DNA of 64,000 nt from Patescibacteria group bacterium (GCA_036172015.1 JAVHSE010000023.1:42266-106265); one strand, 5' to 3'; shown: positions 4,531 to 63,747, numbered from the stretch's first letter. Program-made: numbers and translations. Notes: generated from the letters alone by a model not told the origin.

Positions 4531-4548
4531 AAAAGCCATTTGGCTTTT
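4531..4548 (-). terminator. Hairpin aaaagcca-tt-tggctttt followed by a T-tract on the minus strand
   Basis: Perfect 8-bp stem overlapping the toxin stop codon, with T-run downstream in the transcription direction. Confidence 0.5.
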
Positions 4549-5085: not shown

Positions 5086-5187
5086 TATTCATTATAAACT
5101 TTTTTCAAATTTTGCAAAAAAATAAGATATAAATAAGAAATCTTTTTAGACTTCTTATTTATACAAACAAAATATTCCTTTTATTTC

Positions 5188-5277
5188 AAAAACACAATTT
5201 CAAATTCCTTTCGTAATCACTCTTGCGAAACTATATGAATTTTCCAACCAAACATATCAGTAATCTTTTTTACTATT
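5188..5277 (-). pseudogene. Orphan fragment of a histidine-kinase 3' end (about 88% identical to 9844-9933)
   Basis: Translates IVKKITDMFGWKIHIVSQEGLRKEFEIVFLK*, versus the intact HK end ...IVKKITDMFGWKINIVSQEGVGTEFEIIFLR*. No upstream coding continuation. Confidence 0.75.
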
Positions 5278-5333
5278 TTTATTATATATGTCTAAAAAAT
5301 ATAAGACATGGTAACCCCTTATAAGAGTTTTTC

Positions 5334-11117: not shown

Positions 11118-11787
11118 TGGTTTCAAATTTAAATCATATTCATCTGACGGTTTTTATATAATCAGCTTGATTTCATATATTTATTTTGCTACGAATAGAA
11201 TTAATATGAGTTCGCACTACATCTGACCAAATATCATTATTTATTCCCCAAATATATTCTACCAATTCTGATTTTTTTATGACTTTATTTTTATGTATCA
11301 TGAGATATTCGAGTATTTGAAACTCTTTTGGTGTTAATAAAATATTCCTTCCATTTCTATTGACTTCTTTCAAATCTTGATTTAAAACAATATCGGCACA
11401 CTCAATTATATTCAAATTATTACTCTTATGTACTCTTCTTAAAATACTTCTCACTCTCAAAATAAGCTCTTTCAAACTAAATGGCTTTGTTATATAATCA
11501 TCAGCTCAGAAAGTAAATCATTTTTCTTTTGTTTCTAAATCTTCTTTTGCTGTGAGGAGTATTATAGGAGTATTTATTTTATGGAGTTTTATTTCTTTCA
11601 GTATTTCTATTCCATTGATATATGGAAGCATAATATCAAAAATAAAAATATCATATTGATTTTTGAGAGCTTCTTTTAATCCTGATTGCCCATCACTTTT
11701 TAAAGTAACGATAAAATTATTCTCACTTAAAAATTCTCTTATATTTTCTCAAATAATTTTATCATCTTCGATAAGAAGTATTTTCAT
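11107..11787 (-). CDS. OmpR-family response regulator
   Basis: 226 aa. MKILLIEDD, FDIMLPYINGIE, DDYITKPF. The wHTH end ..DYIKTVRGIGFKFETNEN is reached only by reading TGA 11173-11175 as Gly. Confidence 0.9.
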
Positions 11788-11855
11788 AGTATTTGATTAT
11801 CATTTAATAAAATGATTATAATTAATTTCAATAAAAATCAATGAATCAAAATATT

Positions 11856-13139
11856 TTATTGTGATAGCTTTCAAATTTTAGATTGAATTTCTGACCAAAT
11901 ACATACCGATTGATATTCAAAAATTTTTTGTTCTAATTTTTCTATTTCCATAGAAATACGGTGAAAAAAATCCGCCCCTTGTAAAACATCAAATTCTTTT
12001 GAGATTCTATAAAAAAATTTTTTTGTTTCTTCTATTTTTCTGTATGCTTTTTTAATATTTTCGGTTGTAAAATGAGAATATACTTCGGTAGTTTGCAAAT
12101 TGTCTATTCTATCCCAAAATTTTACTTCAAGTGCATCTAAAACGATACTTTTTATAGTAGATACTTCTATAATAATTTTATTTTGTTCAATAACATCTCT
12201 GGTATGATTATAAAAATTATTCATACAAGGAGTATCTCTAAAATGATCTATGTAATAAATAAAATGAGTTGCTGGAAGCATATGAGAAAAATATTCATAA
12301 TTTCTCATATTTCTATATTTTAAATTTAATTCTTCATACCACTCTTCAAAAAATTTTTCTTCTACAGTAATTTGTTCTGGATTAAAATTTTTTTTATTAA
12401 TAAATCTATCATTGAGTAATCACTTTCGATTGAGTATACCTGACGATTGTATATATTTTAATTTTTCCCAATCTGATAAAGACTGTACCCATTTTCTTTC
12501 ACATTCTATTTCTGATTTTTTTAGTAAGTGTCGTTTATTGTATTTTTTTTCTAAATATTCATGAGTAGGATATCGATCGTCATCTTTTCTTAAAAATCAT
12601 ACTTCTTTCAATTCGTCTAAAATATATACCTCAGGTAATATTTTATCTCAATTTTTTTGATCTTGTGTAGTTAATTCAGTAAAAGGTCGTTTGCTAATAA
12701 TCGCAACTCAAAGAGCAATTTTTATATTTAAAGTAGTTTCTAAAGTATGTAAATCATAATCAGTATCTTCAATACTATCATGATGAAGTGCTATGAGTAA
12801 TTTTCTTAAAGATGGTTTTTTTGATTCAATAAGTACATTATAAGCAACTCTTAAAAGGTGATCAAAATACCTTCCTCCATTATTTCTATTAATATTTTGA
12901 AATTTATGTTTTACAGAAGCATAGGTATGATTGAGTGCTTGAAGTTTTTTTTCTGCATATTCTTGGGTAATTTTTCATGATTGGACATCTTGTTGATATA
13001 ATATTTTATATGCTGTATTCCATAATATTTCAATAGATCTTTCAGGTGACCAATTTACAGCATCATTAAAATGAACAAATTCCTTATTAAGAACTCGTTT
13101 TCCATTTTCTCATGATTGACTTAAAGTAGGAATAATCAT
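11856..13139 (-). CDS. HD-domain protein, RelA/SpoT-type hydrolase-like N-terminus plus unassigned C-terminal half
   Basis: 427 aa. HLLRVAYNVL...LLIALHHDSIEDTD carries the His...His-Asp...Asp pattern of SpoT-type HD hydrolases. The C-terminal ~250 aa have no motif I recognise. Confidence 0.6.
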
Positions 13140-13230
13140 ATGAAAGATTAAAAAATATTTTGATGTATAAGAATAAATAATAATCATTTTTGACTAAAAT
13201 CAAATTTATTTTATAAAATATTTATATATT

Positions 13231-13437
13231 CTAAAAATCAAGTAAAAATGGAATAATTATAAAAAACAATCCTATTCAAACCAGATAATATATATTGGTA
13301 ACAAAATAGGGAAATATCATTAAAACAAGACCACTCAGAAATGCAGAATATTTTTCAGTTTTTTTTCAATACATAAAATATCACATTCCTATTGATCAAA
13401 GAATTACTCAAGAAATAAGTACTGATGTATCAAACAT
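13231..13437 (-). CDS. Small membrane protein (2 TM)
   Basis: 68 aa, MFDTSVLISGVILGSIGMGYFMYGKK...LVLMIFPYFVTNIYYLVGIGLFFIIIPF. Five TGA codons, all in Gly-compatible TM positions. Confidence 0.45.
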
Positions 13438-13453
13438 TTTTTTATAATTAAAA

Positions 13454-14134
13454 TTATTTTTTTCCTAAACAAACAATATATTCTTCATGAGAGCTATCTC
13501 TACAAGCCATCGGTTTGTATGTTTTCATATCAACAAATCTTTTTTTTACTTGCATCACAAGATCATTAAAGTCTTCTCATTTAAAAACTTTTAAAATCAT
13601 ATTTCATCATTGCTTCAAAAATCTATCACTAAATTTACAAATAGCTATATTTAATTCAACGGATGCATATTGGTCAACATCGAATATTCCAGTAGTATTT
13701 GGAGCAATATCACTCGTTATGATATCAAATATATGATTTTCTGGTAATATTTTATCCAGTTCTCCAGTCAATTTTTCATAATCAAATATATCACAAACTA
13801 TTGTTTTTACATTTGAATAATTGAGTGGAGCTATTTCTTTAATATCAACCCCAACTATTATATTTTCTTTTGAAACTATATTTCTAATAGCTTGTAAAAA
13901 ACTTCCCGGAGCTGCTCAAATATCTATCACACTAAAATCTGGTTGAATCAAATCAAATCTTTCTTGAATTTCAAAAAGTTTATAGATACTTCTTGCTCGA
14001 AATCAAGCTTTTTTTGCTTTTATAAAATATTCATCTTGTACAACAAAATTTCCTCTTTGTACTTTCTTTTTTCTATGAAATCATATTTTCATCGGTCATG
14101 ATTGTTTATTTTCAATTCTATTTTTTTTTGCCAT
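13454..14134 (-). CDS. rlmE: 23S rRNA 2'-O-ribose methyltransferase RlmE/FtsJ
   Basis: 226 aa. ARSIYKLFEIQERF, SAM motif DIGAAPGSFLQ (the first G is TGA), SDIAPNTTG, KVFKGEDF. Confidence 0.8.
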
Positions 14135-14143
14135 ATTTATATG

Positions 14144-15625
14144 TTAATAATATTTTTTTATAAATTCTAATCATACTTTTTCATCTTCTTTTATATACAT
14201 CTCAACTGCTTTTTTTGCAACCTCTAACAAATTTTTTGATTTAGTTTTTGCTTCAAAAGATTTTTGTATTTTTTCAGTAATTATTTTAATTTTATCATCT
14301 CAAATGAAAGGAATATCAAAATTTAGAGCATCAGTAATTTTTAGATGTTGAATTAAAGCTCCATTTGTTTGTCTTTCTATTTCTTTTTGAATAAAAATAC
14401 TATTTAAAACTAATTCAATATATTCACTTGGAGCATTTGATATATTTTGAAATCTTAAAATTCAACCACTTATTATTCAATCAATATCTTCTCTCAATAA
14501 ATAAGTTATTCAAGCCGTTCAATCTTTAGAAAAAAGTATTTCTCATTTTTGAGGTTGATAATCTTTTAATGTTTCAAAATGACTATTTTTTATAAATTTA
14601 GCATTATTAAAAGTCATTCAATTTGTTGAAAAATTACTTACTCTTACAAAATATTTTTTATCATCTATTCCTTCAACTTCACTTTCTTCAATATATGCTT
14701 CACCTCAAACCTCAATTCACTTTTTATAATTTATTAATTCTCATAATTTTTCTGATTTTATATTTTTGACTCTCTTTTTAATTTCTACAAAATCATAATC
14801 CCAATATTCAGCATCAAATCTATCAAATTCTTTTAAAATACTATAATTTGTAGTTGAATGATTTTCTTGTACTTCTAAACTATATCAAGGAATTAAATCT
14901 ATATTTTTAGTTTTTGCTTTATAATCAAGTAAATCAAGTTCAGATAAAAGTAAATTTTCTGCTTCTTTATAGAGTTTTTCTGAAAATTCTTTTTGATTAT
15001 AACTTTCTATAATTAATTCTTGAATTTTTTCTTGGAAAAATTGAGAAGGGATAGAAATTAATATTTCTGCTAAATTATCTGGATAAATTTCTATTTGTCC
15101 AGAAGTTCAATTATAAAGTTTATTTATTTGAGCTTGTCATATATTTGAATTAAAAAAAGAATATAAATAAGATGAATTTATTCACTCTAATTTTCTAAAA
15201 GCTGTAATATGTCAATCAATAAAATATTTTTCATTACTTAAATTTATTGAAGCTCTTCATAAAGTTCAAACTCAGGTTGAAGTTAATAAAACATCTCAAT
15301 ATTTTATTTGTCATGATTTTTTAGAATTATAAAAATATTCTTCTATATATTCTTGTCTATCATCAGAAAAACCATTTTCTCTAATATTTACACTTCTAAG
15401 AACTTTTATATTTCAGTTAGAATAGTTGGGTTGAGTTCATCTTTTAATATATCATGCTAAATTTCATAGACTATGAGCTTTTTTAGAAATGAGACTATTT
15501 CTAATTTCTAAAATTTCTGGTTCGTAAAATTCAGCATTCAATCTTAAAATTCAGTATAAACTAGATTTATTTACACTTGAATATTCAACATCAAATAATT
15601 TTCATTTAAATGTATGTGTTTGCAT
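14144..15625 (-). CDS. Restriction-modification specificity subunit (HsdS-like, two TRDs)
   Basis: 493 aa. Duplicated TRD-end motifs GDVLLTSTGVGTLGRA and GEILFSKDGTAGITY, plus conserved helical spacers. Confidence 0.8.
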
Positions 15626-35273: not shown

Positions 35274-35447
35274 CAACAATATCAAGAGTAACACAGAAGA
35301 GATTAGGCTCGTTAGTATGTGTTCAGCAACCTTATAATTATATAAAAGGTGCTCATTCCTACCCGTTATGGGAAAGATATTTTAAGAAACCAAAAATTCT
35401 AAAAAATAATAAAACTTTCCCATAATTAAGGAAAGTTTTTATTTTTT
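35274..35447 (+). promoter_or_regulatory. SAM-I (S-box) riboswitch with intrinsic terminator, leader of metK
   Basis: Conserved blocks tatcaagag, agcaacc, aaggtgctcattcc and gaaagatatt. P1 is aatatc(35278-83)/gatatt(35376-81). Terminator aaaactttcc-N9-ggaaagtttt plus T-tract at 35411-35447. atgggaaag (35368-76) can instead pair with ctttcccat (35415-23) as an antiterminator. Confidence 0.75.
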
Positions 35448-35462
35448 ATAACTTTTTTCATT

Positions 35463-36596
35463 ATGTTACAATATATTACGAGTGAATCCGTTACTTCTGG
35501 ACATCCAGATAAAATTTGTGATCAAGTATCTGATGCTATTTTAGATGCATGTTTAACTCAAGATCCTTATTCAAGAGTAGGATGTGAATGTTTAGCAGCG
35601 AATGATAATCTCGTTATTGCCGGGGAAATTACTACCAAAGCCAATGTTGATTATGTTAAAATAGCAAAAGAAACACTCAAAAAAATCGGATATGATAGTG
35701 ATGAAAAATACTATAATGCTGATAAAGTAAATTACTATAATTTCGTACACACTCAATCAAGAGATATCGCACAAGGAGTAGATACTGGTTGAGCTGGAGA
35801 TCAAGGGATTATGTATGGATATGCAACGAATGAAACTTCAAATTATCTCCCCCTTCCCATTGCTATCGCTCATACTCTTGGGAGAAGACTTGAAGAAGTA
35901 AGAAGAACTGGAGAAATCAATTATGTGTACCCAGATGGAAAGACACAAGTTACCGTGATTTATAATGAAACAGGAAAAGCTATCTGAGTTGATACTGTTC
36001 TTATTTCAACTCAACATGCACTTTGAGTAGATCAAGAAGTTTTGAAAAAAGATTTGATAGCAAAAGTTATTACTCCTGTTTTGAAATATTTTTGATATGA
36101 TATTACTGATGTAGCACATATTTATACCAACCCAACTGGAATATTCAATATAGGTTGACCTGTTTGAGATAGTGGGCTTACTGGAAGAAAAATAATTATT
36201 GATACCTATGGATGAGTTGGAAGACATGGATGAGGTGCTTTTTCTGGAAAAGATCCAACAAAGGTAGATAGGTCATGAGCTTATATAGCGAGATATTTAG
36301 CAAAAAATATTGTTGCTTCAGGAGTATGCGAAAGATGTGAAATCCAACTTTCTTATGCTATCTGAATAGCAAATCCTACGAGTATTTATGTAGATACTTT
36401 TGGAACTCATAAAGTTCCGGTAGAAAATATCATCAATACGGTAAAAGAGAATTTTGATCTTTCACCAGCAGGAATCATAAAAAAACTTGATTTAAGAAAA
36501 CCTATTTTTTCTCAAACTTCTACATATTGACATTTTGGAAAAGATTGACTTTCTTGGGAAGCACTTGATAGTATTGAAATATTTAAAAAAATATAA
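35463..36596 (+). CDS. metK: S-adenosylmethionine synthase
   Basis: 377 aa. [23 protein letters not shown] and GVDTG-[TGA][14 protein letters not shown] 35790-35792 sits on the first Gly of the invariant GAGDQG. Confidence 0.95.
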
Positions 36597-46451: not shown

Positions 46452-46526
46452 CTGTTCTCATAGTTCAACGGATAGAATAGTCCCCTCCTAAGGGACAGAT
46501 GCTGGTTCGATTCTAGCTGGGAATAC
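46452..46526 (+). tRNA. tRNA-Arg (anticodon CCU), CCA encoded
   Basis: Manual fold: acceptor gttctca/tgggaat (two G-U pairs including 1-72), D arm gttc-aacggata-gaat, anticodon arm gtccc-CTCCTAA-gggac, variable agat, T arm gctgg-ttcgatt-ctagc, then A-CCA. Confidence 0.8.
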
Positions 46527-46529
46527 CAC

Positions 46530-46574
46530 TTTTAAGATAAAAATAAAGGAGCTTAGCTCCTTTATTTTTATCTT
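46530..46574. terminator. 21-bp perfect inverted repeat between tRNA-Arg and the pheT 3' end
   Basis: ttaagataaaaataaaggagc-tta-gctcctttatttttatcttaa. The right arm contains the pheT stop codon. Confidence 0.7.
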
Positions 46575-48904
46575 AAAATTCATCATTTTTTTTCAACTTT
46601 TGAAATAATTTCTTTCATTATACCCAACTTGACTTCATCTTTTAATGTTTCTGTCATCGATTGGATATAAATTTTAAAACTTAAACTTCTCTTTCCAGGA
46701 AGTTTTTCTTCATTTTCATATATATCAAAAAGTTCAACTTTTTTAATGAGTTCTTTATTCGTTCCAAGTATAGTGAGATATATTTCTCTTCCGTGAATTT
46801 TTTTATCTACCACAAATGATAAATCAAAATTATTTTCTTGAAAATTTGATAATTCTTTTGCTTTTACTTTATTATAAATAGTGGGTAATAATTTTGATAC
46901 TTCTATATCAAAAAATCCAATTCTCTCTGAAATACCAAATCTTTTTGCAATACTTGGATGAATTTCTCCAACATATCACACTTCTTTTCCTCTTACTATT
47001 ATTTTAGCAACTCTTCCAGAATGTGCATAACTCGGATGTTTTTCACAAAATGTAAAGTAAAAATTATCTACAAATATCGTTTTTAAAAAATCACTTACTC
47101 ATTTTTGAATATCATAATATACTATTTCTTTTATTGAAATCATAACTCAAGATAATCTATAATCTTCGGTAATATTGGTACCATCTTTATAAAAAACTTT
47201 TTCTATTTCAAATAATTTTATATTTTTTCTTTCTCTAATATTATCCTCTAATCACACCATTAAATTTGGAATTAAACTATTTTTCATATGGGTAGCATCT
47301 TCACTGAGAGAATTTTTTAAATCAACACATTCTGAAATATTCATATTCAATTTTTCGAGTAAATTTTTATTTACAAAAGAATAATTATATACCTCAAAAA
47401 ATCATCTATCAGTAAAAAATTTTTTTGAATCTTTTTTAAAAATATAAATTGGATCTTGAATAATAGCTCATAAATTTACTCTTGGAATCGTTGGTATTAT
47501 TTTATCATATCCATCTATTCTGGCAATTTCTTCAGCAATATCAGCTTTGGTAGTTAATTCTTTCCTCCAAAAAGGAATAATAAGTTCATTTCCATTTTTT
47601 TGAATTCAAAGATGATGTAAAATATCTATCACATAGGATTCTTCATAATGAGCTCCTATTAAATTATTATAAAATGATAAATCAAATTCTTGTTTTATTA
47701 CAGGTTGTTTTTTTATATAGCTATCAAAATAACCTTCTATTTTTAATTGAGGAAATTCTTTTAATAATTCATTATAAATGAGACTCGTAGCATAACTTGC
47801 GAGATCAGTTAAAATATCTTTTTCAAATACATTGAGAGCATCAGTTCTTACTCATAATCTTTTTCCAGTCATTCTTAAAATAGCTTGATCAAAATGAGCT
47901 GTTTCAATGATTATATTTTTTGTTTGATCAGATACTGCACTTGATTTTCATCAAATAATTCCAGCAAGAGCTAATACTTTTGTATTATCTGCAATAACAA
48001 TATCTTTTTCACTGAGTTCATATACATTATTATCGAGTGCTTCTAAACTTTCTCATGTGCGAGCAAATCTTATGGTAATATATCAATCAATACAATCAGC
48101 ATCAAATATATGGGCAGGTTGCCCGTAAAAATAGAGTGAATAATTTGATACATCAACCAAGAGTCATCTTACTTCATGTCAAGCAGATTCAATAATAGTT
48201 TTTATTTCATCTCTTGAAATCACATTTCAAACTCAAGAAATTTTTAATAAACTATATCTTTTTACTACTTCAGGTAATTCGTTTATTGCTTTTAGTTTTG
48301 GTATATTTGAAAAGTCCATTGTTTTATATTCATGTCAAAAATCTTTCCCATAAATAGTAGCAAGTTCTCTTCATATCCCCATATAAGAAAACATATCTGG
48401 TCTATGATTAATAGCTTTATTATCTATTTCCAAAATTTCATCATTTTTTCCTAAATACTCTCTCAAATTTATTCATAGTGGGGTATCTTTCGGTAACTCC
48501 CGAATTCAGTCTTGTCTTTGTTCTATTAATCCAAGTTCATCTAAACTACAAATCATTCACTCCGAAATTTCTCATCTGATTTTTGTTTTTTGTATTATCA
48601 TTTCAGAACTTAATTGAGCTCATACTATAGCTATTGGAACTTTTATACCAGCTTTCACATTTGAAGCTCAACAAATAATTTGTTTCGTTTCTCACAAAAT
48701 AGAAACTTGACAAATATGTAATTTTTCACTTTCAGGATGTTTTATACATGAAATCACTTCTCCGACATATACATTTTTGAGATTTTCATTTTGCATAATA
48801 ATTTCTTCTACTTCAGCTGTGTGCATAATTAACTTTTGAGCTGTTGTATTTGAATTTTCTAAATATGGTACATATTTTTTTAATATTTTATAAGAAACTT
48901 TCAT
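46568..48904 (-). CDS. pheT: Phenylalanine--tRNA ligase beta subunit
   Basis: 778 aa. N-terminal tRNA-binding domain MKVSYKILKKYVPYLE...VGEVISCIKHPESEKLHICQV. C-terminus ..SKVEKKGGILR* uses TGA-TGA at 46580-46585. Confidence 0.9.
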
Positions 48905-49908: not shown

Positions 49909-51771
49909 TTAGTGAGAATTAAAATCAAGGATTATATTAAATAAAATTCTAAAATTTTCAAATTCTCCACTATCTAATATTCTAACTTTTTCAGTAAAAT
50001 TATTTTTTGAAGTATCTGATTCAGAAATTTTATAAAAATATAAATCTTCTTTTTTATCTATTTGATCCTGATTTAATTTATCTCTCACATTTGTTATACA
50101 ATGATTTATATCATCAAAAGTTCTTTTTGATATCATTCAACTAGTTTTTAATATTTCTTTTGAATATAAAAATTCAATCGGACAATTTTTATGAGTTTCA
50201 AAATCTGTATTTGGACAAGGAAGAGTAATTCAAAAAATATTATCTCTTTCTTTTACTTTATATTTTTTATTATCTTCCAAAGAATCTCAAATTTGTTTAA
50301 TTTGTTTTAATCATTCATTATCATAATCGAATATTCAAACTACAACTTTATTTTTAAAGAAGTCTTTTGGAATTCAAAGTAAAAACTGTTTTAATTTATC
50401 AGCTCAATCACATGAATAAATATCAAATTGATTTTTAATTCAAAGTTTTTCAATTGCAATTTCTAAATGCTTTTTATCTGTAATTCACTCTGTAACTAAT
50501 AAATATTTATTTCAACTATTTAGAAGAATTTCCATTTCATTTAGTGACATTTGTCAATCAGTAATTTTATCCAAAATTTCCCTTTTTTCTTTTAAATCAA
50601 GTTTTCAGTTTTCTAAATAAAATAAATGTTTTTTATTAAATTTATTCATTAAGGTTGGCGAATGTGTAGTCATGATAACTTCTCATTCTCAAAAGTTTAT
50701 TAGATAATTTTCAAATAAAATTTTTAATTTTTGTTTATTTCAAACATGAATATATGAATCAGGTTCATCTAGTAAAACTAAACTGTTATTTGAAACTAAT
50801 ATATTTGTAACAAAATAAATAAGTAATTGCTTTTTTTGTCATTCACTTAAATCTAATAAGGGTATATTATCAATAAGCTTTAAATTTATATTGTTTATAA
50901 GTTTATCATTTTTAGTTAATCAAAAACAAGCAATTGATAAATGCCAAAAGAAATCTAAATGACTTCAAATAGTTCAATAATCATCACTGTATTTTCTCAA
51001 AGATTCTAGAGTCCAATCATTTTTTGAAGATATTATTTTTACGAAATTTGTTACATCATTTTCTTTAAATTTTTCTAAGTTTTTTTCATCAATATCAAAC
51101 TCAATTTCATTAATCTTAATTCATTTTCAAAGTATATTTTCAACTCATTTGTATAATTCGTCTGTTTCAAAATCATATACTGAAATTAAGATTGTTAACA
51201 AAGCAATATTCCAAAAATCTTTGTTAATAAAAATCATTTTTGGAGTATCAAAAGAGAGAGTTGCTCAATCTAAAGTTAATTTATTATTTTTAACTGAAAT
51301 AATAAAATTTTGATAATATTCTTGATAATATTTTTCGTAAAGTCTTGTTTCTTCTCCTGAGTATAAAGCAATAATATTATATGGTAATATTAAACCTCTA
51401 TCAATATTTTTTGTAAATACTCAATCAATGTAATATCAAACCATTCTCATTTCTGTATCTTCTCACATCATACTCATAAAATCTCCTCAAGTAGGTCAGA
51501 TTGAAATTCATCATTTTGTATATTGTTGAATAACTTTTATATTTTTTCAGTCTTTAAAATATTCTAATTCATAACTAAAAGCACATCTTCTTTCATTTGT
51601 CTCATCATAAAGTCAATAAAAAATTGCACTTATTGCTTCAAGTACATTTGATTTTCAACTTCAATTGTTTCAAACAAAAATTGATATTCATTCAGATTTT
51701 GTAAAATCTATTGGATTTTCCCAGAAATCTAGGTTTTTAAATCATTTTATTTTTAGTGAGATTAGTTTCAT
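49909..51771 (-). CDS. Fused ABC-type (AAA_21-like) ATPase plus C-terminal TOPRIM/DUF4435- or RloB-like domain (AbiL/PARIS/OLD-like)
   Basis: 620 aa. Walker A VGNNGSGKSNVLEAI, LSEGQKK, Walker B LVLLDEPDSYIH, TTHSP. C-terminal LLVTEGITDKKHLEIA (TOPRIM Glu) and GIFDYDNEG (DxD). Confidence 0.75.
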
Positions 51772-52205
51772 TGTGTTCTTTTATTACAATATTTTTCTAT
51801 ACTCCTAACAAGAATATCCATATCATTACCATTAATTCTTGGTTCTGGTTCAGAAATCTTAATATCTTCATTATCATAATAAAGACTAGCTGATAGTATA
51901 ACTGAAATAACTATCGTAATGAATAATAAAAATCATGAAAAAATTAAATATGCTTTATCTTTAAAATCTTTATATTTTTCAATAATAATTCACACTGAAA
52001 TAAATGCTATTCAAAAAGAAATATTTATGAAAATATTTAATTCTAAATCAGGTTTTATAAAATTTGGTATAAAATAATTAATTCAAATTATAAGTATTTT
52101 TATTAAAGCTATAAATAAAACTGGTAATATCCCAATAATTATACTTTCTTTAAATCTAATTTTATTATCTTTTCACATAAAAAAATTTATAATTTTATTA
52201 AGCAT
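51762..52205 (-). CDS. Small 3-TM membrane protein overlapping the start of the ATPase-TOPRIM gene
   Basis: 138-147 aa (ATG 52205 or 52178). TM segments IIIGILPVLFIALIKILIIG, IFINISFGIAFISVGIII and LIFSGFLLFITIVISVILSA. Its 3' end overlaps the downstream start by 10 nt. Confidence 0.5.
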
Positions 52206-52232: not shown

Positions 52233-53603
52233 TTAACTAAAAATTTCCCTCTCAAACTCAACTTTTGCAATTTCTTTCAAATCCCCAGAAAGTTTTTTCA
52301 AACTCTTAATTTCTTCTTTTAAATCTCAAATATGTTTTACTATTTTGTCTTGAGTTTCAATTTCTGGTAAAGGAAAAAATATTTTTAATAAATTTCAAAC
52401 TCATAATTCAGTTTGTTTTGTTGCTTGAGCAGATTTTATATTATCTACTTGTTCTTGTCATAAATTATTATTAAAGAAAGTTACAAAAAAATCTGGATTA
52501 ATTATACTTTGATTCAGTCTTAATAATAATAAGTGACTATCATATAATAATCCTTCAAATCATTCCCTTATTAAACTAGCTCTTCATATTGTCCCTTCTC
52601 AAGTTGAATTAATTAATATATCTCAAGTTTGAGTCAATAAATTATTATCAATTCATTTTAACCAATTTTCATCAACTATTTTTCAAAATTGTAAGTCTAT
52701 TTCATCCCACCTATTACATTTTTGGTTTAATATGATTTTATTTCATTTTTCCGAATATTCAGGACTTTTTCATCTTTTAATATCTTTATAATAATCTATA
52801 TTATCTCATAAAGACACAAGTTTATATTTATCACTAGAAAAAAGATTAAATATATTTATCTTATCAACTCCCCATTCCTTTATTTTTAAATAATCCACAA
52901 AATTTAATCATATTTTTTTATTTTCTTTTTCTTTCACTTCAATTCCTAATTCTTCCATCAAATAACTTTCAATTTGTTTTTCTAATTCTCCAGCTTTTAT
53001 ATCAGCATTTAAAGAATCTTTAAGCTTTGCATTATATTCTTCTACAATTCTATTTTGTTCTTCTAAACTTGGAAGTGGTATTTTTGTATTTAGAAAAACA
53101 TTCATATCAACTCTTTGTCTTCAAGTTGTTCAACTACTTCATTGTTGAGTGTAATCCAAAAATTCTTTTGTTCATAAAATAAGTATTAGAAATTGAATAT
53201 TTATTTTATTTTTATCTACTATAAAACTTGGAAAATCATTTGTTACAATAGCTCATTTTAAATCTACTGGAACTATTCAAAAAGCTCAATTTCTGGCATC
53301 AATTTTTGACATTATAAATTCTCATCATGAAACTAAAAATTGTTTTTTAGTTCAGATATTTTCTCACTTTTCTATATCTCTCAAAAAAACTCAATTATTA
53401 TTCATTTTTATAGTAACTCTTTTGTATTCTTTTCAGTCTTCTATATCTATTTGAGTTTTATTTCTCATCAAAAAATCTCAAATTTTTACAAATTCAAAAT
53501 TTTTGTTATATGAAAAGGCTGTTCATTTCAGATATTGAACACTCCAGTTTGAGACATCTATAAAGTCTATAAATTTCAAATATGTATTATTTAATATTTC
53601 CAT
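52233..53603 (-). CDS. hsdS: Restriction-modification specificity subunit (HsdS-like, two TRDs)
   Basis: 456 aa. ..SSGTTGRQRVDMNVFLNTKIPLPSLEEQNRIVEEYN.. (central conserved region), ..STGEGTIGRA.. and ..IFFPLPEIETQDKIV... Confidence 0.85.
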
Positions 53604-53630
53604 AATTTTACTTTCCTTATTTATTTTAAA

Positions 53631-53800
53631 TTACATACTAGTTACATAGTTTGTTGGCTTATTATAAACATTATTACTTTTTATGAACTTCTTCAGTTAC
53701 ATACCAGTCACATATTACTTTGGCTTATAATAAGGATTTATATATTAAACACTCTTTTAGAATCACATGCCAGTCACATAGATTTATGCCCAATATGGAA
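53631..53800. repeat. Three imperfect direct repeats with exact 66-bp spacing (starts 53631, 53697, 53763)
   Basis: 18-nt core tYACATRCYAGTYACATA: ttacatactagttacata, ttacataccagtcacata, tcacatgccagtcacata. Repeats 1 and 2 also share ttggcttatNataa. Lies between the hsdS start and the 3' end of the AlbA_2 gene. Confidence 0.8.
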
Positions 53801-55214
53801 TGTATTCATTATTCTTTTCTCATGCTTTAATTTTATTATTATCTATGGCAAGTTTTATAATTCTTGAAGCCATTGAATAATTTTTTTCTGCAATATTAAA
53901 TCTTTCTCTTAGACTACTATTTGTCATTTTTTCTTCACCAGATAAATACTTTAAAACACAATGTTGATAACAAGCCCTTATTTTATCTGATTCAGTCATA
54001 TTTCTTAATTCTCTAGGAGAATATAATGTTACTCTTGTAAATTCATCATATATTTCAAAATTTGGTGCTGGTAATTGAAAAAGTTCTATATTTGATATAG
54101 CTCTATCAACTCAAGATCCACTTTCTTCACAATATCAGAATCTTCTCATTAAACTGGCTAAATCTTCATTTCTAGATTTTGGAGGATGATCCATAAATCT
54201 ATCAACATCAATTAAAGGAATTCAAGGATTTGTTATTTCAATTCTATTGTTATAAATTTCAATTAATGGTCAAGTTCATGTAATTGAAAAATCTTGATGA
54301 ATAATAGCATTAGCAATAAATTCTCTTAAACTAACTTCTGGGTAAATAGATTTTTTAATTCTTAAAGCTCTTCATATTTCTTCATTTTCTCATATTTTAG
54401 AAATAATATAATCTATAAGTCCTTCAAATCATACTGCATATCACTTTTTTCATTCGATTTCTTCTTTTCTAATATTTTTATTATTTCAATCATATATTAT
54501 AACTCTAATTGTTTTTCTTTTAATTAAATCAAATTTTTGTATATCACGAGCAAATAATATAGCTCATAAAACAGTTATTGAATATTTTCAATTATCTTGA
54601 ATTTTTACTAAATTATCTTCTGCTAATTTTTCAACAAATTTTTTAGTTTCAGTTGGTAAGTCTTGTTTTGTTAATATAAAATATTTATCATAATCTAATA
54701 ATTTTAAAACTTCATCATAAGTTAAATTTTCATAACAAATTTGTTTTTCAAAATTTTTATTTTTTAAGTTATTCCAAATTTTTTCTTCTATTCTAGGATA
54801 GTTTGCTAAATTAGTTGTACTTTCTCCGTCTCTAATATAAGCAATATTATCAAATCTAATAGGAATATTTTTAGCACTTTCAATTTTTAAAATAACTACT
54901 TTTTTTCATTCAACTTCTAATTCTAAAAATTCTACAAATACTTTTGGAGATAATTTTTGAGATAACCAAATATGTAAATTTTGATTTCAAACTTTATAAT
55001 CATTTGGCTTAAAATCTGTTCAAATTATCTTTTTAGTTAAATTTTCAACTCAAAAAAGAATATATCAAAAATCTCTTCATTTTAATAAAGCTGTATTTGA
55101 AATAGCAGAAATATTTTTTCAATCTCTTTCTTTATCAAAATTTTCTTTAAATTCTATATATCAAATTCATTCATGTTGATTTAATAGAGTTTTTAATAAT
55201 TCTATATTTTCCAT
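53784..55214 (-). CDS. AlbA_2 (Schlafen-like) plus HATPase_c_4 putative DNA-binding/regulatory protein
   Basis: 476 aa. N-terminal ..HEGIGYIEFKENFD.., central ..REFIANAIIHQDF...IEITNPGIPL...SRNEDLASLMRRFGYCEESGSGVDR.., and a C-terminal wHTH-like tail. Confidence 0.7.
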
Positions 55215-55233
55215 ATTGTTAAAATTTAAATTG

Positions 55234-57366
55234 TTACCATAAATTATTTTGTTTTCTATATTTTGCAAATTCTTCTGCAAGTGGTTCAAGTTCATTTTCT
55301 ATAACTGCTCAAGTTGTAGAAATTCAAGCTTTATCAACTTCTGCAATAGCAATTTTGTAATTAAAAGTTTCTTTTATTTTCCTTTTTGTTTCCATATTTC
55401 TTTTTTCCCATAATACCACTATCTCAGCAGGAATCTTCTTTTTTTCATCTTTGTCTTTTATTTCTTTGAGTTTTTTAGTAAGAGACTTAATTTGTGAATC
55501 ATAGATTCATCCTATATCTAATTCTGCATGTGCTTTTATTTCTTCATATTCTTTTTCCTCTTCTAAAGTAAATTTCTTTAGAAAAACTAAACTTGGCTTA
55601 ACTGTTGCTCAACTTGCAACAAACACATCTTGAGGTATTGAAGTAATTAATAGTATTTTTGCTCTTCATTCAAAATAATCTCTTACTTTTTGTAAATTTG
55701 AATTATTCAAAACTCATTCAGGAAGAACAATTCACATTCTTCATCATGCTTTTAAAAGCCTTAAATTTCTTTCCATAAATAAGACTTCTGTAAGAGTTGT
55801 AAACTTTCCTAAATCATATAAATCAACCAAATTTTTACCTATATTTCATTCAATTTGATTCAAAGCTTTTAAATATTCATCTCAATATTTTTCAATATAA
55901 TATTTCTTCTTAACTTCATCTTTATATTTATCTCATTCTTCTATTTTTAAATCTTTAGGAACTCTAGAACCAAAAGGAGGATTTGCAAGTATTACATCAA
56001 ATCTATTTTCAAAAATTCAGTTTACATTTAATAGTCAGTCATTATGATGAATTCCATTATGTCAATCTCAGTGCATTATCATATTCATTTTTGAGACTCT
56101 TGCCATTCTAGGATTTGCATCAGTCCCAAAAATAGAATTATGACAAAGTTCATTTATTCTTTTTTCTTCTTCTTTGTTTATTTCTTCTAAGTAATTATTA
56201 TATTTTTTATTTAGTTCTTCATTCTCAATATTTTCCAAATTTTCTCAGAAAATTTCTTTTTGTTTTTGTTTCTTTAATAAAATAAATTCATTAGATATTT
56301 CTTCTCTTATTTTCTCAAAAGCTTTAATTAAAAATCAACCTGAACCACAAGCAGGATCGCAAATTAACTCTCATTCTTTTGGTTCTAATATATCAACCAT
56401 AAAGTTTACTATGCTTCTTGGTGTAAAGAATTGTCATAATTCACCTCTTAAGGTTCTTCAAAGAAATTTTTCAAAAGCAATTCACTTTATATCTGAACTT
56501 GTAGTAGTTAGATTATATTTTTCCAGTTCTTTTACTATTTGTTCAAAACTTACTTCTCTTAGATTTATTTTCTCATATTGGTCAAAAATATTATCATTTT
56601 TAAATTCTTCTTTAACATCTTCAAAAAGTCTTTGCATATATGAATTTTCTTTTTCACTTCCCATTCTTATAGTTTCCCATGCATCTTTTAATTTTTGAAA
56701 TTGTTTAAAAGAAAAAATTGCTTCTTGTTTTGGTTTTCTTTCATACATTATTTTAATAAAAAGTATTTTCGATATTTCATCAAAAGCACTTTCAGGAGAA
56801 AGTTTATCATTATTTCTTATTATATTATGACATTTTTGTAATACTTTTGAAAATTCGTCTCAAGTAAATTCTTTGGTTTTAGCTAAAAAATCTTCTAATT
56901 TCGCATTATCTAAAATATCTTTTACATGAGGAATATCGTTTACTGGTTGTAAACTTAAAGGTAGTTCTTCTTCTACTGTTTTATAAACTTGAAGTTCTTT
57001 TGAATTGCTTACTGCAAAAAGTTTTGCTCTACTCCAAGTAGCATAATTATATCATTGATAACAATCTTCAACTTTTAAATTTATATAAGGAGCTTTTAGT
57101 TCCACAACTAAAAATGCAGTTTTATTTGATAATTTTTCCTCTTTAGTTTTCCATACTACTATATCTGCTCTTGCTTTTCAATTTCCTCTTTGAGAGTTTG
57201 TTAATAAAACCTCTTCATACATTTGCTCAAGAGAGTATCAATAATCATTTATTAATTTACAAACAAATTCTTGTCTTACAATCTCTTCTGGAGTTGATTC
57301 AAGATATTTATCTCTTATAAAAGAATAAATTTTTCAATTTTTATCATATTTTAATTCTAGATTCAT
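55234..57366 (-). CDS. hsdM: N6-adenine DNA methyltransferase (HsdM-like) with N-terminal PD-(D/E)xK/HsdR_N-like domain
   Basis: 710 aa. N-terminal KARADIVVW...AFLVVELKAP. GQFFTPRSIV, CDPACGSGGFL (motif I), LANPPFGS (motif IV). Confidence 0.85.
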
Positions 57367-57436
57367 AATTATAATATTTTAAATAATTTTATTAAATATA
57401 TATAATATAAGTTGTTATTCAAGTTTAAATAATTAT

Positions 57437-57565
57437 TTATAGTTCTGAATATTTTTCTTTTCAAGAAATATTGTGTTTTAAAGATTTAAAATCTTTATGT
57501 TCAATATTTTTGTTTTCTTTTGGAAAATTTGATTTTATATATTCTTTCAGTTGATTTTCTAGCAT
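57437..57565 (-). CDS. 42-aa ORF, possibly a remnant of an AlbA_2-type N-terminus
   Basis: MLENQLKEYIKSNFPKENKNIEHKDFKSLKHNISGKEKYSEL. Weak resemblance to the E-x-E-F-K start of AlbA_2 proteins. May not be expressed. Confidence 0.2.
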
Positions 57566-57589
57566 ATAGAATTTGAATTAGTTAATAAT

Positions 57590-59314
57590 TTAAATTTTAT
57601 TTCTCAAGATAAAATTAATAAATTTATTTAGTAGATTTTGAAAGTTTATCAATAAGATTTTTTTAACTCATAAAATTTTTTCTACATTAAGAACTCAACC
57701 TCATAAAAAATCATACATTCATATAATTCTTTCTATTGGTAAAAAATACCTTTGAACATTCTCATCATTAACTAATTTATTTATGGATCATACTGCTATA
57801 ATTCATTTATTGTCTTTTATATTTAGTTTAAAAGAAGAAATATCTAGTCATAATTTTTTTATATTGTTTTCTATAAACTCAAGATATTCCCTATGAGAAT
57901 CATATAAAATAATTTTTGAAAAATTTTCGTAATACTCCTTAAATTTATTTTCAAATTTCAAACTACTTCTTACTATAATATTTGAAGTAGTAAATTTAGA
58001 ATCAAATAAAGTTATATTTCTACTTTCATAATTTATTATTAATAAATCTATTTCTAAATTTCAACTTTTATGGTTTCAGACATTTCTATAAAAATCTAAA
58101 TAATTTTTTCAATAATTTGTTATTCTAATAAATTTAAATCAATCTAGAGTAATTAGAAATTTATTATTATAGTTTTTTAAATCAATTATTCAATTAACTA
58201 GTTTTAATACTGTGTAAATTTCAAATATATTAAATAATGCAGTATCAATACCTATAGCAGTCTTAAATTTATTATAAAAATCTTCTATGTCCTCAAAATT
58301 TGTTAATCAAATGTCCTCTATATTTTTATGCGATAAGAATCTACTCTTTATTTTATCATTTTTTAGTAAATTTGAAACTATAGAAAATATTTTATCAAAA
58401 GAATTAAATATACTATTTTGATTATAATCAATATTATCTATAAATTTATTATTTTTAAAAGAAATAAAATCATCATAGTAAACTATATTTTTATTTTGTC
58501 TTAAAACTTCTATAATATCTTTAACATTCAGTATAGAAACTATAGTATTTGAAACTAATTCACTTATAGCTAACTTTCAAATGTCAGATTCATTATAAAT
58601 ACTCTTTATATTTGAGATAAAATTATCTATATTTAGAAAATCCAAGTTCTCTATTATTCTTGATATTTCAACTCATTCAATTATTTGTTCTAATTGATTT
58701 TTTAATTCCTCATATTGTCTTGGAAAATTATATTCATCAAATGATATATTATCTAGTATTTCATCAATTTTTATATTATCAGATTGTAAAGTATTACTAT
58801 TATTTAATTTTACATCTTTTGTTAAAACAAGATCTTTTAAATCAAATTTATTTCTCAACACATTAATCCACTTTCTATACTCAACTACAATTTTATCATT
58901 AATATAATTTAAAGTAGCTCATGGATATAATGATAATATTTGTTTATTAATGTCATCTATATTTGGGTATATTCAGCGAATTATAAAGTTTTCTATAAAA
59001 GTGAATATTTTAGGTTTAATATTTTTAGAAAATTCATCATCGATTATTATATTAAAATATTTTTCAAAATTATAATCTTCTAATATTTTTCTTACACCTG
59101 TTTTTATTCTTCAAGGCTTTAACTTTAAAATTTCAGGACAAGGTGCATTTTTAGAATCTCACTCTATTCACATAACTTTATCTAAAAGTCTATACCTATC
59201 AAAATTAGGAGCTAATGTACTTCTATAGATATTAGACAAATAGTTAAGATAAATATTTATTACTTTATCTTCCATAGAAATTCAATCATTATATCAAGGA
59301 TTTTTAATACTCAT
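57590..59314 (-). CDS. Hypothetical 574-aa protein downstream of the OLD-UvrD pair
   Basis: Single code-25 ORF with about 20 in-frame TGA, starting 21 nt after the helicase stop. No TM segments, P-loop or nuclease motif that I can assign with confidence. Confidence 0.6.
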
Positions 59315-59335
59315 ATACTTTTAAAAAGTTAAAAA

Positions 59336-61024
59336 TTATAGCTGGATTACATTTTCTTCTCAAAAAACATTTTCCCATCAATTTAATGCATTTGCATTTA
59401 AACTAGATAAATAAAGAACAACTAGTTTGTGTTTTGCTCTTGAAAGAGATACATATAATAAATTTAGTAATCTTTCTTCTGCTTCTAAATGTTTTTCTTG
59501 ATCTTTATTTAGTTTTTCTCAAGAAACTAGCTTATCAAATCATCTATAAATATACCACCTATGAGAATCATCAATTATTACTAAAACATTATCATATTCA
59601 GCTCATTTAGTTCAATGTTGTGTTGAATAAGGAGTCATATTTTCTCTATATTTATAATATTCAATTATTTCTTTGTATTCCAGATTTAAAATAGAGTTTT
59701 TAAATTCATTAGCTATTTCTTGTCTTTCAATTTTTTCCTGTTCAGAAAAACTCTCTAATAAATATTCTTCAAATTTTGAAATTCTATCAGTCTTTTTAAA
59801 AATGTTATTATTAAAAATATATTTTAGAACTGTTTCAATAGATTCATTATTTCTTATTTTCTCCAATCAAATAATTAAATTTTTTAATTTCTCTTTATCT
59901 GTTATTTTATTTACTTTAAAATCTTTATCTCAAAATAATTCAAATAAATTATAATAATCCTTTTTGTTAAAATAAAAAATAAGCTTTTCAATTTTTGTAA
60001 CTAAAAAATTAATATAAGGTTCATCAGCCTCTTTTAATCTATCATTTCCATTTAAACTGTATCTTTTTTCAAAAATATCTATTAAATTTCTAAATCATAA
60101 ATCTTCTCATATCTTTTTGTTAGTTAGAACTAATATTTTATTTTCAGAAGGATTATTTTCGAAGTCCCAGTTTAAAACTTCTAAAGTTTTTTTATATTTT
60201 TCTTCAACATCTAAAGAATTTGAGTAATAAAAGTTTACTTCACCATCAAAGTCTTTCATAGCTACTTGTTTTAGTCAATCTTTTTTTTCTCTGACATTAT
60301 TTACTAATTTAACAATTTTTTTTCAACTTCTAAAATTTTCTAATTTTTCTATTTTTTCTAATTTATCACTAATAAGTTTTCAAATTGTATTATTTTGATA
60401 GATTTTTTGCATTGAGTCTCAAAAAAATCATAATAAAAACTTTTCTTGATTTCAGTTTAAAACTTCTAAAAAAGTATTTACAATTTCTTTATTAGTATCT
60501 TGATATTCATCAATAAATAAATATGGATATTTTCTTATTAGTATTTTTGCTAAAGAAGGATACTTATTGAACATTTTTACTGAAAAATTAATAACATCAT
60601 CATGTCATATTTCTCAATTTTTTAATCTTCTTCAATATTTTCAATAACTAATAGTTAATGATTTTAATAATGATTCAATATCATCAATTTTTTTATCCCA
60701 ATCTAAGTCATTATTTAATTCTATTATTTCCTTCTTTAAATTAACTTGATAGTCTCATATTAATGACCAAAGAAACTCATGTATTGTATTTATTTCAACT
60801 ATATCAGAGTATCATAATCTTTTTATCATTTCATCTTTAGCGACATTTGTATAAGTTATACAAGCTATTTTTTCTCATGTATGATAAAAAGAGTCTCATT
60901 TAATTGAAATTATATGTCTTATAGTTTCAATTAGTGTATATGTTTTTCATGATCATGCTCAAGCTTCTAATATAAAGCTTTTTTTATTTTTTATTGATTC
61001 TATTACTTTTTCTATTGTAGTCAT
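59336..61024 (-). CDS. UvrD/PcrA/Rep-like SF1 helicase (GajB-like)
   Basis: 562 aa. Walker A LEAGAGSGKTYT, FIDEYQDTN, FFGDSMQKIY, STQHGTKGAEYDNV, LLYVSLSRAKHKL. Confidence 0.85.
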
Positions 61025-61025
61025 A

Positions 61026-63038
61026 TTATTTTGATAACCAAATTAAACCTTCTTTAATATATTTTGGAATAATAAATGACTCCATCATCAATACATCAAA
61101 AGCAAAATCTGTCTTTAAAGAATTATTATCTATATAACTTGAAATTTCCCAAGATTTCTCTTTTACTTGATCTTTATTTAATGAAGAAAATTTATTTTTT
61201 AAAATTATAGATTCTTTAGAGTAATTTTCTAGTTTTTCATAATTTGCTAATATAAATGCCTCTTCAAAGCTTCTTCATGTATTTCAGTTTTCCTCAATTT
61301 GATATGCAACTCTATAATTTCATACAATTTTGCTATTTTCTGCTAATGATAATAAAACTGACAATTCCTTTTTTCAAGGAATCCAATTTATTAAAGTATA
61401 ATTACTAGTGTATTTTCATTCAGATACTTTATAACTACATTCTTTAGAATCATCAGAATCAATCTTTTTTCAAGTAAATCATAATAGTATTTTTTCTTCC
61501 TTTGTTTTTTTATCAACAGAATCAATATCTGTAATTATTAAAGTTTTTATTCATATAAATTCAAGAAAATTCTTAAATTTATGTGAATATGCTCATCAAA
61601 CTTCTATAATAGAAATATATTGAGAAGTTAATTTTTCATGAATATTTTCAATCTCATTATCTATATTTAAAATAAATAATGGTAATAAAATTCTTTCTAC
61701 CATTCACTCTATTAATATTAATTTATCAGCAAAAAATATATCTGATTTTTCTAAAGTTAAATATTTTTTTAGAAATTCAAAATTTCATTCATCGTTGAAG
61801 TTGTTCAAATCTTTGACTTCAGTATTACTATTTTCTTTTTTGAAGTATCTAATTTTTGTAAAATCAGAACATGTGATAATATGAGAAGAATGAGTCGTTA
61901 AAACTATTTGCACATTCCATCATTTGCTATTTATAAACTTTTCTATTTGCTTAATAAAAGTTTGTTGCATTTGTGGGTGTAAATGAGCTTCTGGTTCTTC
62001 TATAAATAATAATTGAAATTGTGGAATAGGTTTTAACTTGATGAATTCTCAATATAAATATGAAAATTGAAGTATTATATATATTAAATTACTATATCAA
62101 AGTCCATTGTAGGATTCAGGTAACTGATAATCTCAGTTTGAGTAGTATATTTTTGAGTTATTTCATTTCATTAATTCTACTGCAGACAATTCAGCTTTTA
62201 ATGATAATTTTCTATCTTTGTCAGACAATCATGGATATCAAAAATTTCATAAATCTTCTTGTAGAACTTTAAAAAACTTTAAATATTCTCCATCTAAGCT
62301 ATCGTTAGTTTTAGACAGTAATGTATCTAAACCTTTTTCTATGTTTAAGTCTGTATTTTTCTTAAAGTAATTTTCAAATATTTTTGATAAAGTATTATTT
62401 TTATCAGAAGAGTTATCATCTAAATCTCTTTGGGCATTTATAAAACTTGTATTAAATATACTACCTATATCTTTATTAAGTTTATGCATTAAATTTGATG
62501 AATCAATAACAAACTTTTGAATCTCAAAATTTCATTCAAAGTTATTTTTTATATAATTTATAATTTTAAAATCTTCTTCATCTCAATATAATTCTTTAAT
62601 TTTTTGATAAAATCATATCTTATTTTTCATCACTAATTTTAGACAGATTTTATACTCATCTATTGAGTCTTCTAAATCTCCTCTAAAATCTAATCAATCA
62701 TCATCTTCTTCTATCTTAAAGTTAATAATAAGAATTATTTCCGGTATGGATTCTTCAAATATATTATATTTTTTACCTCTTTCTTTTTCATCTTCTATTT
62801 CTTTTTCATAGTCCATGTATAACTTTAAAGATTCTTTTAATTTAACATGTGTACATATTGAGAAATCATTGAAATCAAATTTACTTCAATCATTAAAAAA
62901 TTTTTTAAATAATTCTGTTAATGATGTTTTTCAACTATTATTTCTTCATACAATAATAGTATGATTTTTATTAAATTCTAAATTCTCAATGTTATGTAAT
63001 AATCTAAAGTTTTTTATACCAATGCTTTTTATGTACAT
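61026..63038 (-). CDS. OLD-family ATP-dependent endonuclease (class 2 OLD / GajA-like): ABC ATPase plus TOPRIM
   Basis: 670 aa. Walker A VGRNNSGKTSL, Walker B LLFIEEPEAHLHPQ, LTTHSSH, TOPRIM LILIEGMVERILLP and LIITDIDS. Stop lies 1 nt before the helicase ATG. Confidence 0.85.
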
Positions 63039-63156
63039 AAAATATTAATAATTAATAAAATTTAGATAAAAAATTATCTATAAACAAATTGATTATATTC
63101 ATTACATATTAATTTTATATTAATTTTTAAAAGAAAATTTTATTTTATGTTAAAAA

Positions 63157-63747
63157 CTATAAATCTAGCTTATTACAAGCATTCATAATTTCATCTGCAG
63201 TTATTCATAAATATCTCATAGTTACAGCAAGAGAAGAATGATTTAACTTATGTTGTATAATTTCAAGAGGTATTGCATTTATACGAGCTTGATATCACCA
63301 AGTTTTACGGAGAGTGTGATTTCAGAAATTACCTTTAAGTCAAACATCTTCGCAAATTTTAGAAAGAAGTATCCAGCTCATTTTACGACCTATAGATTTA
63401 ATTCAAAGTGGGAAAGTTTTTTTTTGAAAAAATATAAAATTATTTTTATCTAAAATAATATTTGGATAAGTTTCTTTATATAGTTTTAAAGTTTCTTTAA
63501 CTTTTGGAGTAATAGTAATCCTATTAGTTTTATTTGTTTTTTCTTCTTTTATATCAAAAAAATCCTTTATACCTGAGTTATTCTCAAAAATATCTTTTAC
63601 TTGAATAGAAAGTAAGTCTGAAATACGAAGAGCTGAATTTATTCATAATTCAAATAAAAGTAAGTCACGAATATTTCAATCAAATCTAAGTAAATTTTTT
63701 ATTTGAGAAATCTTTTTTATATCTCTAATTGGTTCTACAAATTGCAT
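63157..63747 (-). CDS. Short tyrosine site-specific recombinase (catalytic domain only)
   Basis: 196 aa. ..GINSALRISDLLS.. (Arg I), ..GNHTLRKTWGY.. (His-x-x-Arg), ..LNHSSLAVTMRYLG.. (His, catalytic Tyr). Confidence 0.75.

Follow-up and report, generated by a model that had tools for sequence, protein, structure and literature searches.

A 64,000-nucleotide (nt) stretch of DNA from a Patescibacteria group bacterium (GCA_036172015.1 JAVHSE010000023.1:42266-106265), called the window here, encodes at positions 57590–63038 a canonical two-gene Gabija system, formed by the nuclease GajA and the helicase GajB, in a bacterium whose genetic code assigns TGA to glycine. The pair is followed on the same strand by a third gene, X574. 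Our reading of this gene, held at even confidence, is that it is a separate, facultative and fast-evolving cargo gene with a nuclease-like motif, often located behind gajB and also found alone. An earlier note on this DNA, made from the sequence alone, had raised the possibility that the third gene is a conserved partner in a three-component Gabija variant. The comparison of related loci does not bear this out: an intact X-like gene is present in only one of the six closely related loci that can be read behind gajB, the full-length homologue P0122 stands alone, and one relative, L011, has deleted the gene. The features of the locus are as follows.

61026–63038, minus strand: gajA, a class 2 OLD nuclease (ABC-type ATPase plus TOPRIM) of 670 amino acids (aa), assigned with PADLOC, Pfam and PDB
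59336–61024, minus strand: gajB, a UvrD/PcrA/Rep-like superfamily 1 (SF1) helicase of 562 aa, assigned with PADLOC, Pfam and PDB
57590–59314, minus strand: X574, a 574-aa protein of a new three-member family, with one full-length and one remote homologue
59315–59335, minus strand: spacer between gajB and X574, 21 nt
57367–57589, minus strand: gap between X574 and the methyltransferase gene (hsdM), 223 nt
63061–63082, minus strand: AT-rich hairpin and T-run in the interval between a small tyrosine-recombinase gene and gajA, from an AT-tolerant hairpin scan

The genetic code determines how the region is read. With standard table 11, no open reading frame (ORF) longer than 95 aa is present at 54–64 kb; with TGA as a sense codon, the whole window resolves into densely packed long ORFs, three of them on the minus strand at 57590–63038. 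The exact coordinates and spacings that the earlier note had given for three same-strand ORFs are recovered in this way: gajA and gajB lie 1 nt apart, X574 follows gajB after 21 nt, and hsdM follows X574 after 223 nt. TGA encodes glycine and not tryptophan, because in both ATPases the invariant glycines of Walker A are encoded by TGA (in GajA, G-RNNS-G-KT; in GajB, A-G-A-G-S-G-KT) and because TGA makes up 4.0% of codons versus 0.48% for TGG. The DNA has a GC content of ~22%, and the host is most likely a member of a code-25 lineage, Gracilibacteria or Absconditabacteria, judged from the glycine decoding and the GC content rather than from a marker gene. There are 27 TGA glycine codons in gajA and 27 in gajB, and the catalytic motifs of both proteins read correctly only with this decoding. 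Public databases carry translations in which TGA is tryptophan (P0001, P0002, P0122), with 22–27 wrong residues per protein, which weakens homology and structure searches.

The Gabija, or class 2 OLD, pair was reportedly described in Doron 2018 and Schiltz 2019. All of its defining features that can be tested in silico (domains, gene order, junction, and motifs) are present in the window. GajA matches the PADLOC GajA profile PDLC00063 with 576 bits, residues 1–670 aligning to positions 1–661 of 679, and contains the Pfam domains AAA_15 (3e-47, residues 1–388) and OLD-like_TOPRIM (9e-17, residues 435–506). Its nearest PDB entries are B. cereus GajA structures 8wy4, 8jq9, and 8sm3 (E ~1e-9), to which the glutamate of the TOPRIM LIEG motif and the TDxD motif align; Walker A (GRNNSGKT), Walker B (LLFIEEPE), LIEG and TDID are all intact. 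GajB matches the PADLOC GajB profile PDLC00135 with 459 bits and the Pfam families UvrD-helicase (1.4e-21) and AAA_19, has PcrA, UvrD, and Rep as its nearest PDB relatives, and retains helicase motifs I (AGAGSGKT) and II (FIDEYQD). The OLD/UvrD pair recognized in the earlier note is thus a genuine and complete Gabija pair. Since GajA and GajB cover their PADLOC subfamily profiles almost fully, there is no missing domain for a third protein to supply.

Gabija has been reviewed (PMC10568477), and both Gabija and class 2 OLD nucleases are two-gene systems by definition (PMC10568477, PMC6755086, PMC10781630); the two genes of B. cereus Gabija are described as sufficient for anti-phage activity (PMC10568477, PMC10781630). 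The locus resembles the described system in its gajA-to-gajB order, the 1-nt junction, the combination of an ATPase–TOPRIM protein with an SF1 helicase, the intact motifs, and the strong PADLOC matches. It differs in its code-25 host and in the extra gene behind the pair, which is present here and in a related locus, L014, and lies outside the described system. By analogy with B. cereus Gabija, GajA and GajB would form a large hetero-oligomer, the published GajA4–GajB4 complex, in which GajA would nick DNA once inhibitory nucleotide pools fall during phage replication and GajB, stimulated by the resulting DNA ends, would hydrolyse (deoxy)nucleoside triphosphates and so deepen the depletion. 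In the literature searched, we found no paper naming Gabija together with Gracilibacteria, only passing co-mentions of Gabija and Patescibacteria, and no paper combining Gabija, GajA, GajB, and "third gene". The only published GajC name for a non-canonical Gabija partner belongs to Type II Gabija, in which GajC, a protein with a split MazF-like fold, takes the place of GajA in a two-gene GajB–GajC operon (PMC13069673). The idea of an alternative nuclease working with GajB is similar, but here GajA is present, GajC is much smaller, and the 574-aa X574 carries no MazF or other recognisable domain. An identification of X574 with GajC was rejected on the presence of GajA and the lack of any match to MazF/PemK or another Pfam family.

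X574 is a genuine protein-coding gene and not a chance ORF, because P0122, a 578-aa protein from a code-25 genome, aligns with it end to end (28% identity, E 7.7e-33). When 1.84 billion cluster representatives were searched exhaustively with phmmer, with the tryptophan version of X574 as the query, P0122 was the single homologue returned. The description of the third ORF as real yet unassignable therefore stands: X574 has no match in Pfam, PADLOC, or NCBIfam, one chance-level match only in PHROGs (phrog_18544, E 0.003, function unknown), and nothing significant among PDB sequences (best E 0.28). Two profiles were built for the family, a two-sequence profile (A1) and a three-sequence core alignment (A3) that includes the remote relative described below, and PDB profile searches with both gave noise only. 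Searches of IMG/VR viral contigs, GTDB genomes, and JGI metagenomes with X574, A1, and A3 found no further relative, tblastn of X574 against plasmids and phages found nothing, and GajB searched alone in genomes found no related locus. The only protein that a word-indexed search recovered, with X574 or with the A1 profile as query, was P0001, the tryptophan translation of X574 itself; as P0122 was missed, this type of search is insensitive for so low-complexity a query. P0001 derives from seven contigs of one study, and the four sister contigs that were compared are 100% identical to the window, so that strain variation among them is uninformative. At the level of sequence, X574 defines a tiny, very rare, and fast-evolving protein family with three intact members known.

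The family can be divided into two regions. The N-terminal portion (residues ~1–340) is variable and mostly helical, whereas the C-terminal core (~355–540) is conserved. In the A3 alignment of X574, P0122, and the L014 protein, the invariant residues of the core are E365 (within F-E-I-Y), K371, G402, R410, G413, E421-I-D423, D438-x-K440-F441, and S444. All three proteins start with M-[S/K]-I-K (MSIK in X574, MKIK in P0122, and MKIK in the L014 protein from its second ATG). The core motif, which in X574 reads E421-I-D423 ... D438-S-K440, matches the order and spacing of the PD-(D/E)xK superfamily, which includes Cas4/PDDEXK_1 proteins, HamA, and restriction endonucleases: a helix glutamate, E-I-D, 14 residues, and DxK. 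The likeness is confined to the motif level, with no profile, PDB-sequence, or hhalign match for X574, and it makes X574 a candidate PD-(D/E)xK-type nuclease on the motif alone. If so, the core would act as a Mg-dependent DNA nuclease, and the long, variable helical part could serve as a sensing or regulatory region.

AlphaFold returned no usable model of X574, with a predicted local distance difference test score (pLDDT) of 30.5 for the full-length protein and 31.8 for the core only. The input was the tryptophan version of the sequence, and the entry of 22 glycines as tryptophans partly accounts for a pLDDT of ~30. The low-confidence models place short strands at 424–428 and 433–437, around both motifs, and are unreliable. 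A HEPN assignment was also considered: X574 carries R410-x4-H415, but the histidine is absent at that position in both homologues, and HEPN was rejected.

The locus of P0122, L012, is a code-25 contig of 4,957 bp with 22% GC. Upstream of P0122 lie two genes: the contig end truncates the first, a rubredoxin–FAD/NAD oxidoreductase fusion, and the second encodes a ferredoxin-like lipoprotein and is separated from P0122 by a clear AT-rich hairpin and T-run; downstream lie three small opposite-strand genes. The 1.5 kb upstream of P0122 contain neither an OLD nor a UvrD gene. The earlier note had held that homologues found mostly away from OLD/UvrD genes would refute its proposal, and P0122, standing alone behind a terminator, is such a homologue, although the only one and located on a short contig.

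We searched for further members in the neighbourhoods of related gajB genes, and this led to the third member. In L014, a 515-aa protein aligns with X574 residues 360–469 at 35% identity (E 5e-7). Both proteins are rich in N, I, and K, and a composition control was therefore made in which the X574/P0122 core profile was compared with 682 ORFs of at least 60 aa from the window and related loci: only the L014 protein matched (E 6e-8), the runner-up lying at E 0.12, and a reciprocal search from the L014 protein found X574 at E 1e-4. If started at its second ATG, the L014 gene begins 22 nt past the gajB stop, compared with 21 nt in the window, and the GajB proteins of the two loci are 54% identical. 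This member was found by looking beside gajB and lies below the detection limit of the unbiased phmmer search, so that equally remote members elsewhere would be missed.

L011 shows what becomes of the pair when the X-like gene is lost. It is 91% identical to L014 at the nucleotide level across gajA–gajB and lacks L014 positions ~4119–5586 (~1.45 kb, inside the X-like gene). Homology resumes into a common gene encoding 331 aa in L014 and 353 aa in L011 (78% protein identity). L011 keeps the start of the X-like gene, ATGATTTATA, and its last ~13 codons (DKEMIIEDIFDNF-stop vs. DKKIIIEDVFDNFKKIN-stop), which identifies the event as an internal deletion in L011 rather than an insertion in L014. After this deletion, gajA (689 aa) and gajB (568 aa) of L011 are intact, which suggests, by sequence comparison, that the X gene is dispensable for keeping gajAB. 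The two loci thereby offer a natural with/without comparison for the X-like gene. The common 331/353-aa protein (L014 5659–6654; L011 9784–10845) sits behind Gabija, with or without the X-like gene, has no Pfam or PADLOC match, and is another candidate linked gene, undescribed so far.

The position 3′ of gajB was then compared more broadly. GajB has 3515 homologues at E ≤ 1e-10. The eight closest are 49–62% identical to GajB by BLAST and 53–66% by alignment; their loci are all TGA-recoded, mostly with 19–22% GC, and carry gajA directly upstream in 8/8. The sequence 3′ of gajB can be read in six of the eight, and its content is different in every one.

L016: a Cas4-like PDDEXK_1 nuclease and an Nmad3 protein
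L007: an 840-nt gap, then a HamA-like protein and a large helicase
L005: a small opposite-strand gene
L009: a 185-aa membrane protein and a 102-aa protein
L011: a 353-aa unknown protein, plus the X-like remnant
L014: the 515-aa unknown, X-like protein and a 331-aa protein
L015 and L017: contigs end after gajB

An intact X-like gene thus follows gajB in one of the six (L014) and a remnant in another (L011), while the genes in L005, L007, L009, and L016 are unrelated; a code-25 tblastn of X574 against L005, L007, L009, and L011 (and duplicates) found nothing. Nor is an X-like gene seen in two related pairs from normal-code genomes: unrelated genes follow gajB in L013, and in L018 the contig ends ~150 nt past gajB. 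With GajB 65% identical by alignment (only L015 is higher, at 66%), L016 encodes at 2642–4622 a 404-aa Cas4-like PDDEXK_1 protein with a four-cysteine cluster motif, which starts 30 nt after gajB, and then Nmad3, a nucleotide-modification-associated protein. L007 encodes at 10541–14170 a 276-aa protein with a D...EVK motif and without a Pfam match, and a protein of more than 900 aa with DEAD/DEAH-helicase motifs seen by eye, a putative pair that resembles Hachiman (HamA/HamB). Neither the Cas4-like protein of L016 nor the HamA-like protein of L007 is related to the X core by hhalign.

The variable slot behind gajB is reminiscent of cargo slots in defence islands: its content changes from locus to locus, and several of the contents are defence-like (the Cas4-like nuclease with Nmad3; the HamA-like protein with a helicase). 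It differs in that two divergent lineages carry an X-family gene at precisely this position, which is more specific than generic co-location. In our reading, X574 would be a facultative cargo gene and not an integral third subunit, using the slot 3′ of gajB in at least two lineages. It could act as a stand-alone nuclease-type defence or toxin module that shares an island with Gabija and with the M and S restriction–modification (RM) genes. Four points weigh against this reading. First, two of the three intact members and one remnant lie directly behind gajB with the same ~21–22-nt spacer and orientation. Second, P0122 is on a 5-kb contig, and a Gabija pair could lie farther off. Third, the L011 deletion is undated, and that gajAB stayed intact afterwards suggests but does not prove that they function. 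Fourth, the nuclease assignment is without profile or structural support, every library search being negative.

The first of these points exceeds what would be expected for an unrelated gene, so that a functional accessory role keeps a place in the discussion. X574 would then be a facultative accessory component of a lineage-specific Gabija variant, co-transcribed with the pair and working with its complex, for example as an additional DNA-degrading effector or a specificity or anti-evasion module, and lost or swapped for other nucleases in some lineages. We consider this possible and less probable than the cargo reading. The X gene is on the same strand ~21–22 nt 3′ of gajB in two loci whose GajB proteins are as divergent as 54% identity, with a remnant in a third; the M-[S/K]-I-K start is common to all three X proteins; no convincing terminator separates gajB from X574; and the presence of another PD-(D/E)xK nuclease, the Cas4-like protein, in the L016 slot hints that a nuclease may be functionally meaningful at this position. 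The recurrence is, however, biased by ascertainment, as only gajB neighbourhoods were viewed and the unbiased homologue P0122 is not beside gajB; of the two intact members that are, one was found via these neighbourhoods, and the sample is very small. Moreover, five of the six readable close loci have no intact X-like gene, L011 deleted its copy with gajAB left intact, GajA and GajB are full-length for their subfamily, and Gabija is published as sufficient with two genes (PMC10568477, PMC10781630). The linkage between the X gene and Gabija proposed in the earlier note is therefore upheld in part, by the remote relative in the same slot of L014 and the remnant in L011, and weakened by the stand-alone P0122 and by the majority of close loci without the gene. 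Because the third gene is not a conserved Gabija component, current evidence does not warrant listing this locus as a new three-gene system.

A related and equally tentative proposal is that the X family is an undescribed nuclease-type Gabija accessory module specific to code-25 candidate-phyla bacteria, sharing the gajAB transcript and working with the GajA–GajB complex, perhaps as a second DNA-cleaving effector or as a counter to phage anti-Gabija proteins. Were this so, it would be the first three-component Gabija variant, facultative like the accessory genes of other defence systems. Should X574 modulate Gabija, one of the most widespread defence systems would gain its first accessory factor; should it act alone, a little-studied lineage would supply a new defence candidate of the single-gene nuclease type.

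Transcription signals contribute little to the choice between cargo and accessory component. Among same-strand gaps in the window, 45% are at most 21 nt long and the median is 30 nt; the 21-nt spacing between gajB and X574 is typical of this genome and is therefore no evidence of an operon or of functional linkage. A standard terminator scan requires GC-rich stems and, as hairpin stems in this genome are AT-rich, found no terminator in the whole region. The AT-tolerant scan detected the hairpin at 63082–63061 (stem 9, loop 4, free energy −5.0 kcal/mol, followed by TTTTATT), which probably delimits the gajA transcription unit on its 5′ side, and nothing convincing in the gajB–X574 spacer or the 223-nt gap. 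The earlier note had likewise seen no terminator hairpin between gajB and X574, but this carries no weight for linkage. In our view, X574 is probably transcribed by read-through from gajAB. A promoter of its own is possible: a sigma70-like element, TTGAGA-17-TATAAT (59363..59335), which matches at 11 of 12 positions and is the best of the region, overlaps the gajB stop and ends 21 nt before the X574 start. This match was rejected as evidence of a promoter, since sigma70-like matches occur in the window at the random rate (8 observed vs. 7.7 ± 2.9 expected) and show no enrichment in front of genes. Another such match, 57395..57368, lies just upstream of hsdM. The 223-nt gap contains a 42-codon ORF (57437–57565, minus strand; MLENQLKEYIKSNFPKENKNIEHKDFKSLKHNISGKEKYSEL), called on one sister contig only and without a family match, which may be either a small gene or a remnant of one.

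On its other side, X574 adjoins an RM unit at 52233–57366 (minus strand) that has no adjacent hsdR and includes a 710-aa methyltransferase with an N-terminal HSDR_N_2 domain. A gene with SLFN_AlbA_2 and HATPase_c_4 domains (53784–55295) overlaps the M gene by 62 nt as called, and an HsdS-like gene is next. Possible classifications of the unit are a type I system without R and a type IIB arrangement like that of BcgI. X574 might accordingly be taken for the missing restriction or nuclease subunit of the M (55234–57366) and S (52233–53603) genes: it lies directly upstream of M on the same strand, it carries the nuclease-like motif, and no hsdR-like gene is present in the 49–64 kb island. We judge this very unlikely, given the 223-nt gap between X574 and M, the absence from X574 of the helicase/ATPase motifs carried by HsdR, the HSDR_N_2 domain already present in the M protein, and the lack of a methyltransferase or S gene near the X homologues in L012 or L014.

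X574 could also have no defence function, being instead a lineage-specific structural or regulatory protein or a decaying gene of a selfish element in a variable region. Its lack of matches to defence, phage, or general families, the redox housekeeping-type genes upstream of P0122, and the extreme rarity of the family would fit this explanation, which we nevertheless find improbable: full-length, intact copies of the ORF occur in three divergent genomes and share a conserved motif of charged residues, and two of them lie in defence islands directly behind gajB. In general, defence genes typically diverge fast around a conserved core.

The remainder of the island and of the window holds several further features. 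Directly upstream of gajA, and before the hairpin and T-run at 63061–63082, lies the gene of a 196-aa tyrosine recombinase of the Phage_integrase family (63157–63747, minus strand), a possible sign that a mobile or invertible element borders the defence island here. At the other end, a 620-aa ABC-ATPase/Toprim-like defence-type gene (49909–51771, minus strand; PADLOC PtuA 104 bits, ATPase-Toprim_I-B 56 bits, weak Pfam DUF3226) overlaps by 10 nt a 147-aa membrane-protein ORF (51762–52205, minus strand). Three of the four sister contigs (L001, L002, and L004, from different sequencing runs) end at window position ~51742, by the start of the 620-aa gene, which suggests a repeat or a strain-variable junction at this position. 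The only tRNA of the window, tRNA-Arg(CCT) at 46454–46528 (plus strand), lies ~2.5 kb from the start of the 49–64 kb defence cluster and adjoins a 778-aa ORF (46568–48904) that is putatively pheT-like, by eye only. Farther away, an S-adenosylmethionine (SAM) riboswitch (Rfam RF00162, 48 bits) at 35276–35383 (plus strand) is located upstream of an ORF at 35463–36596.

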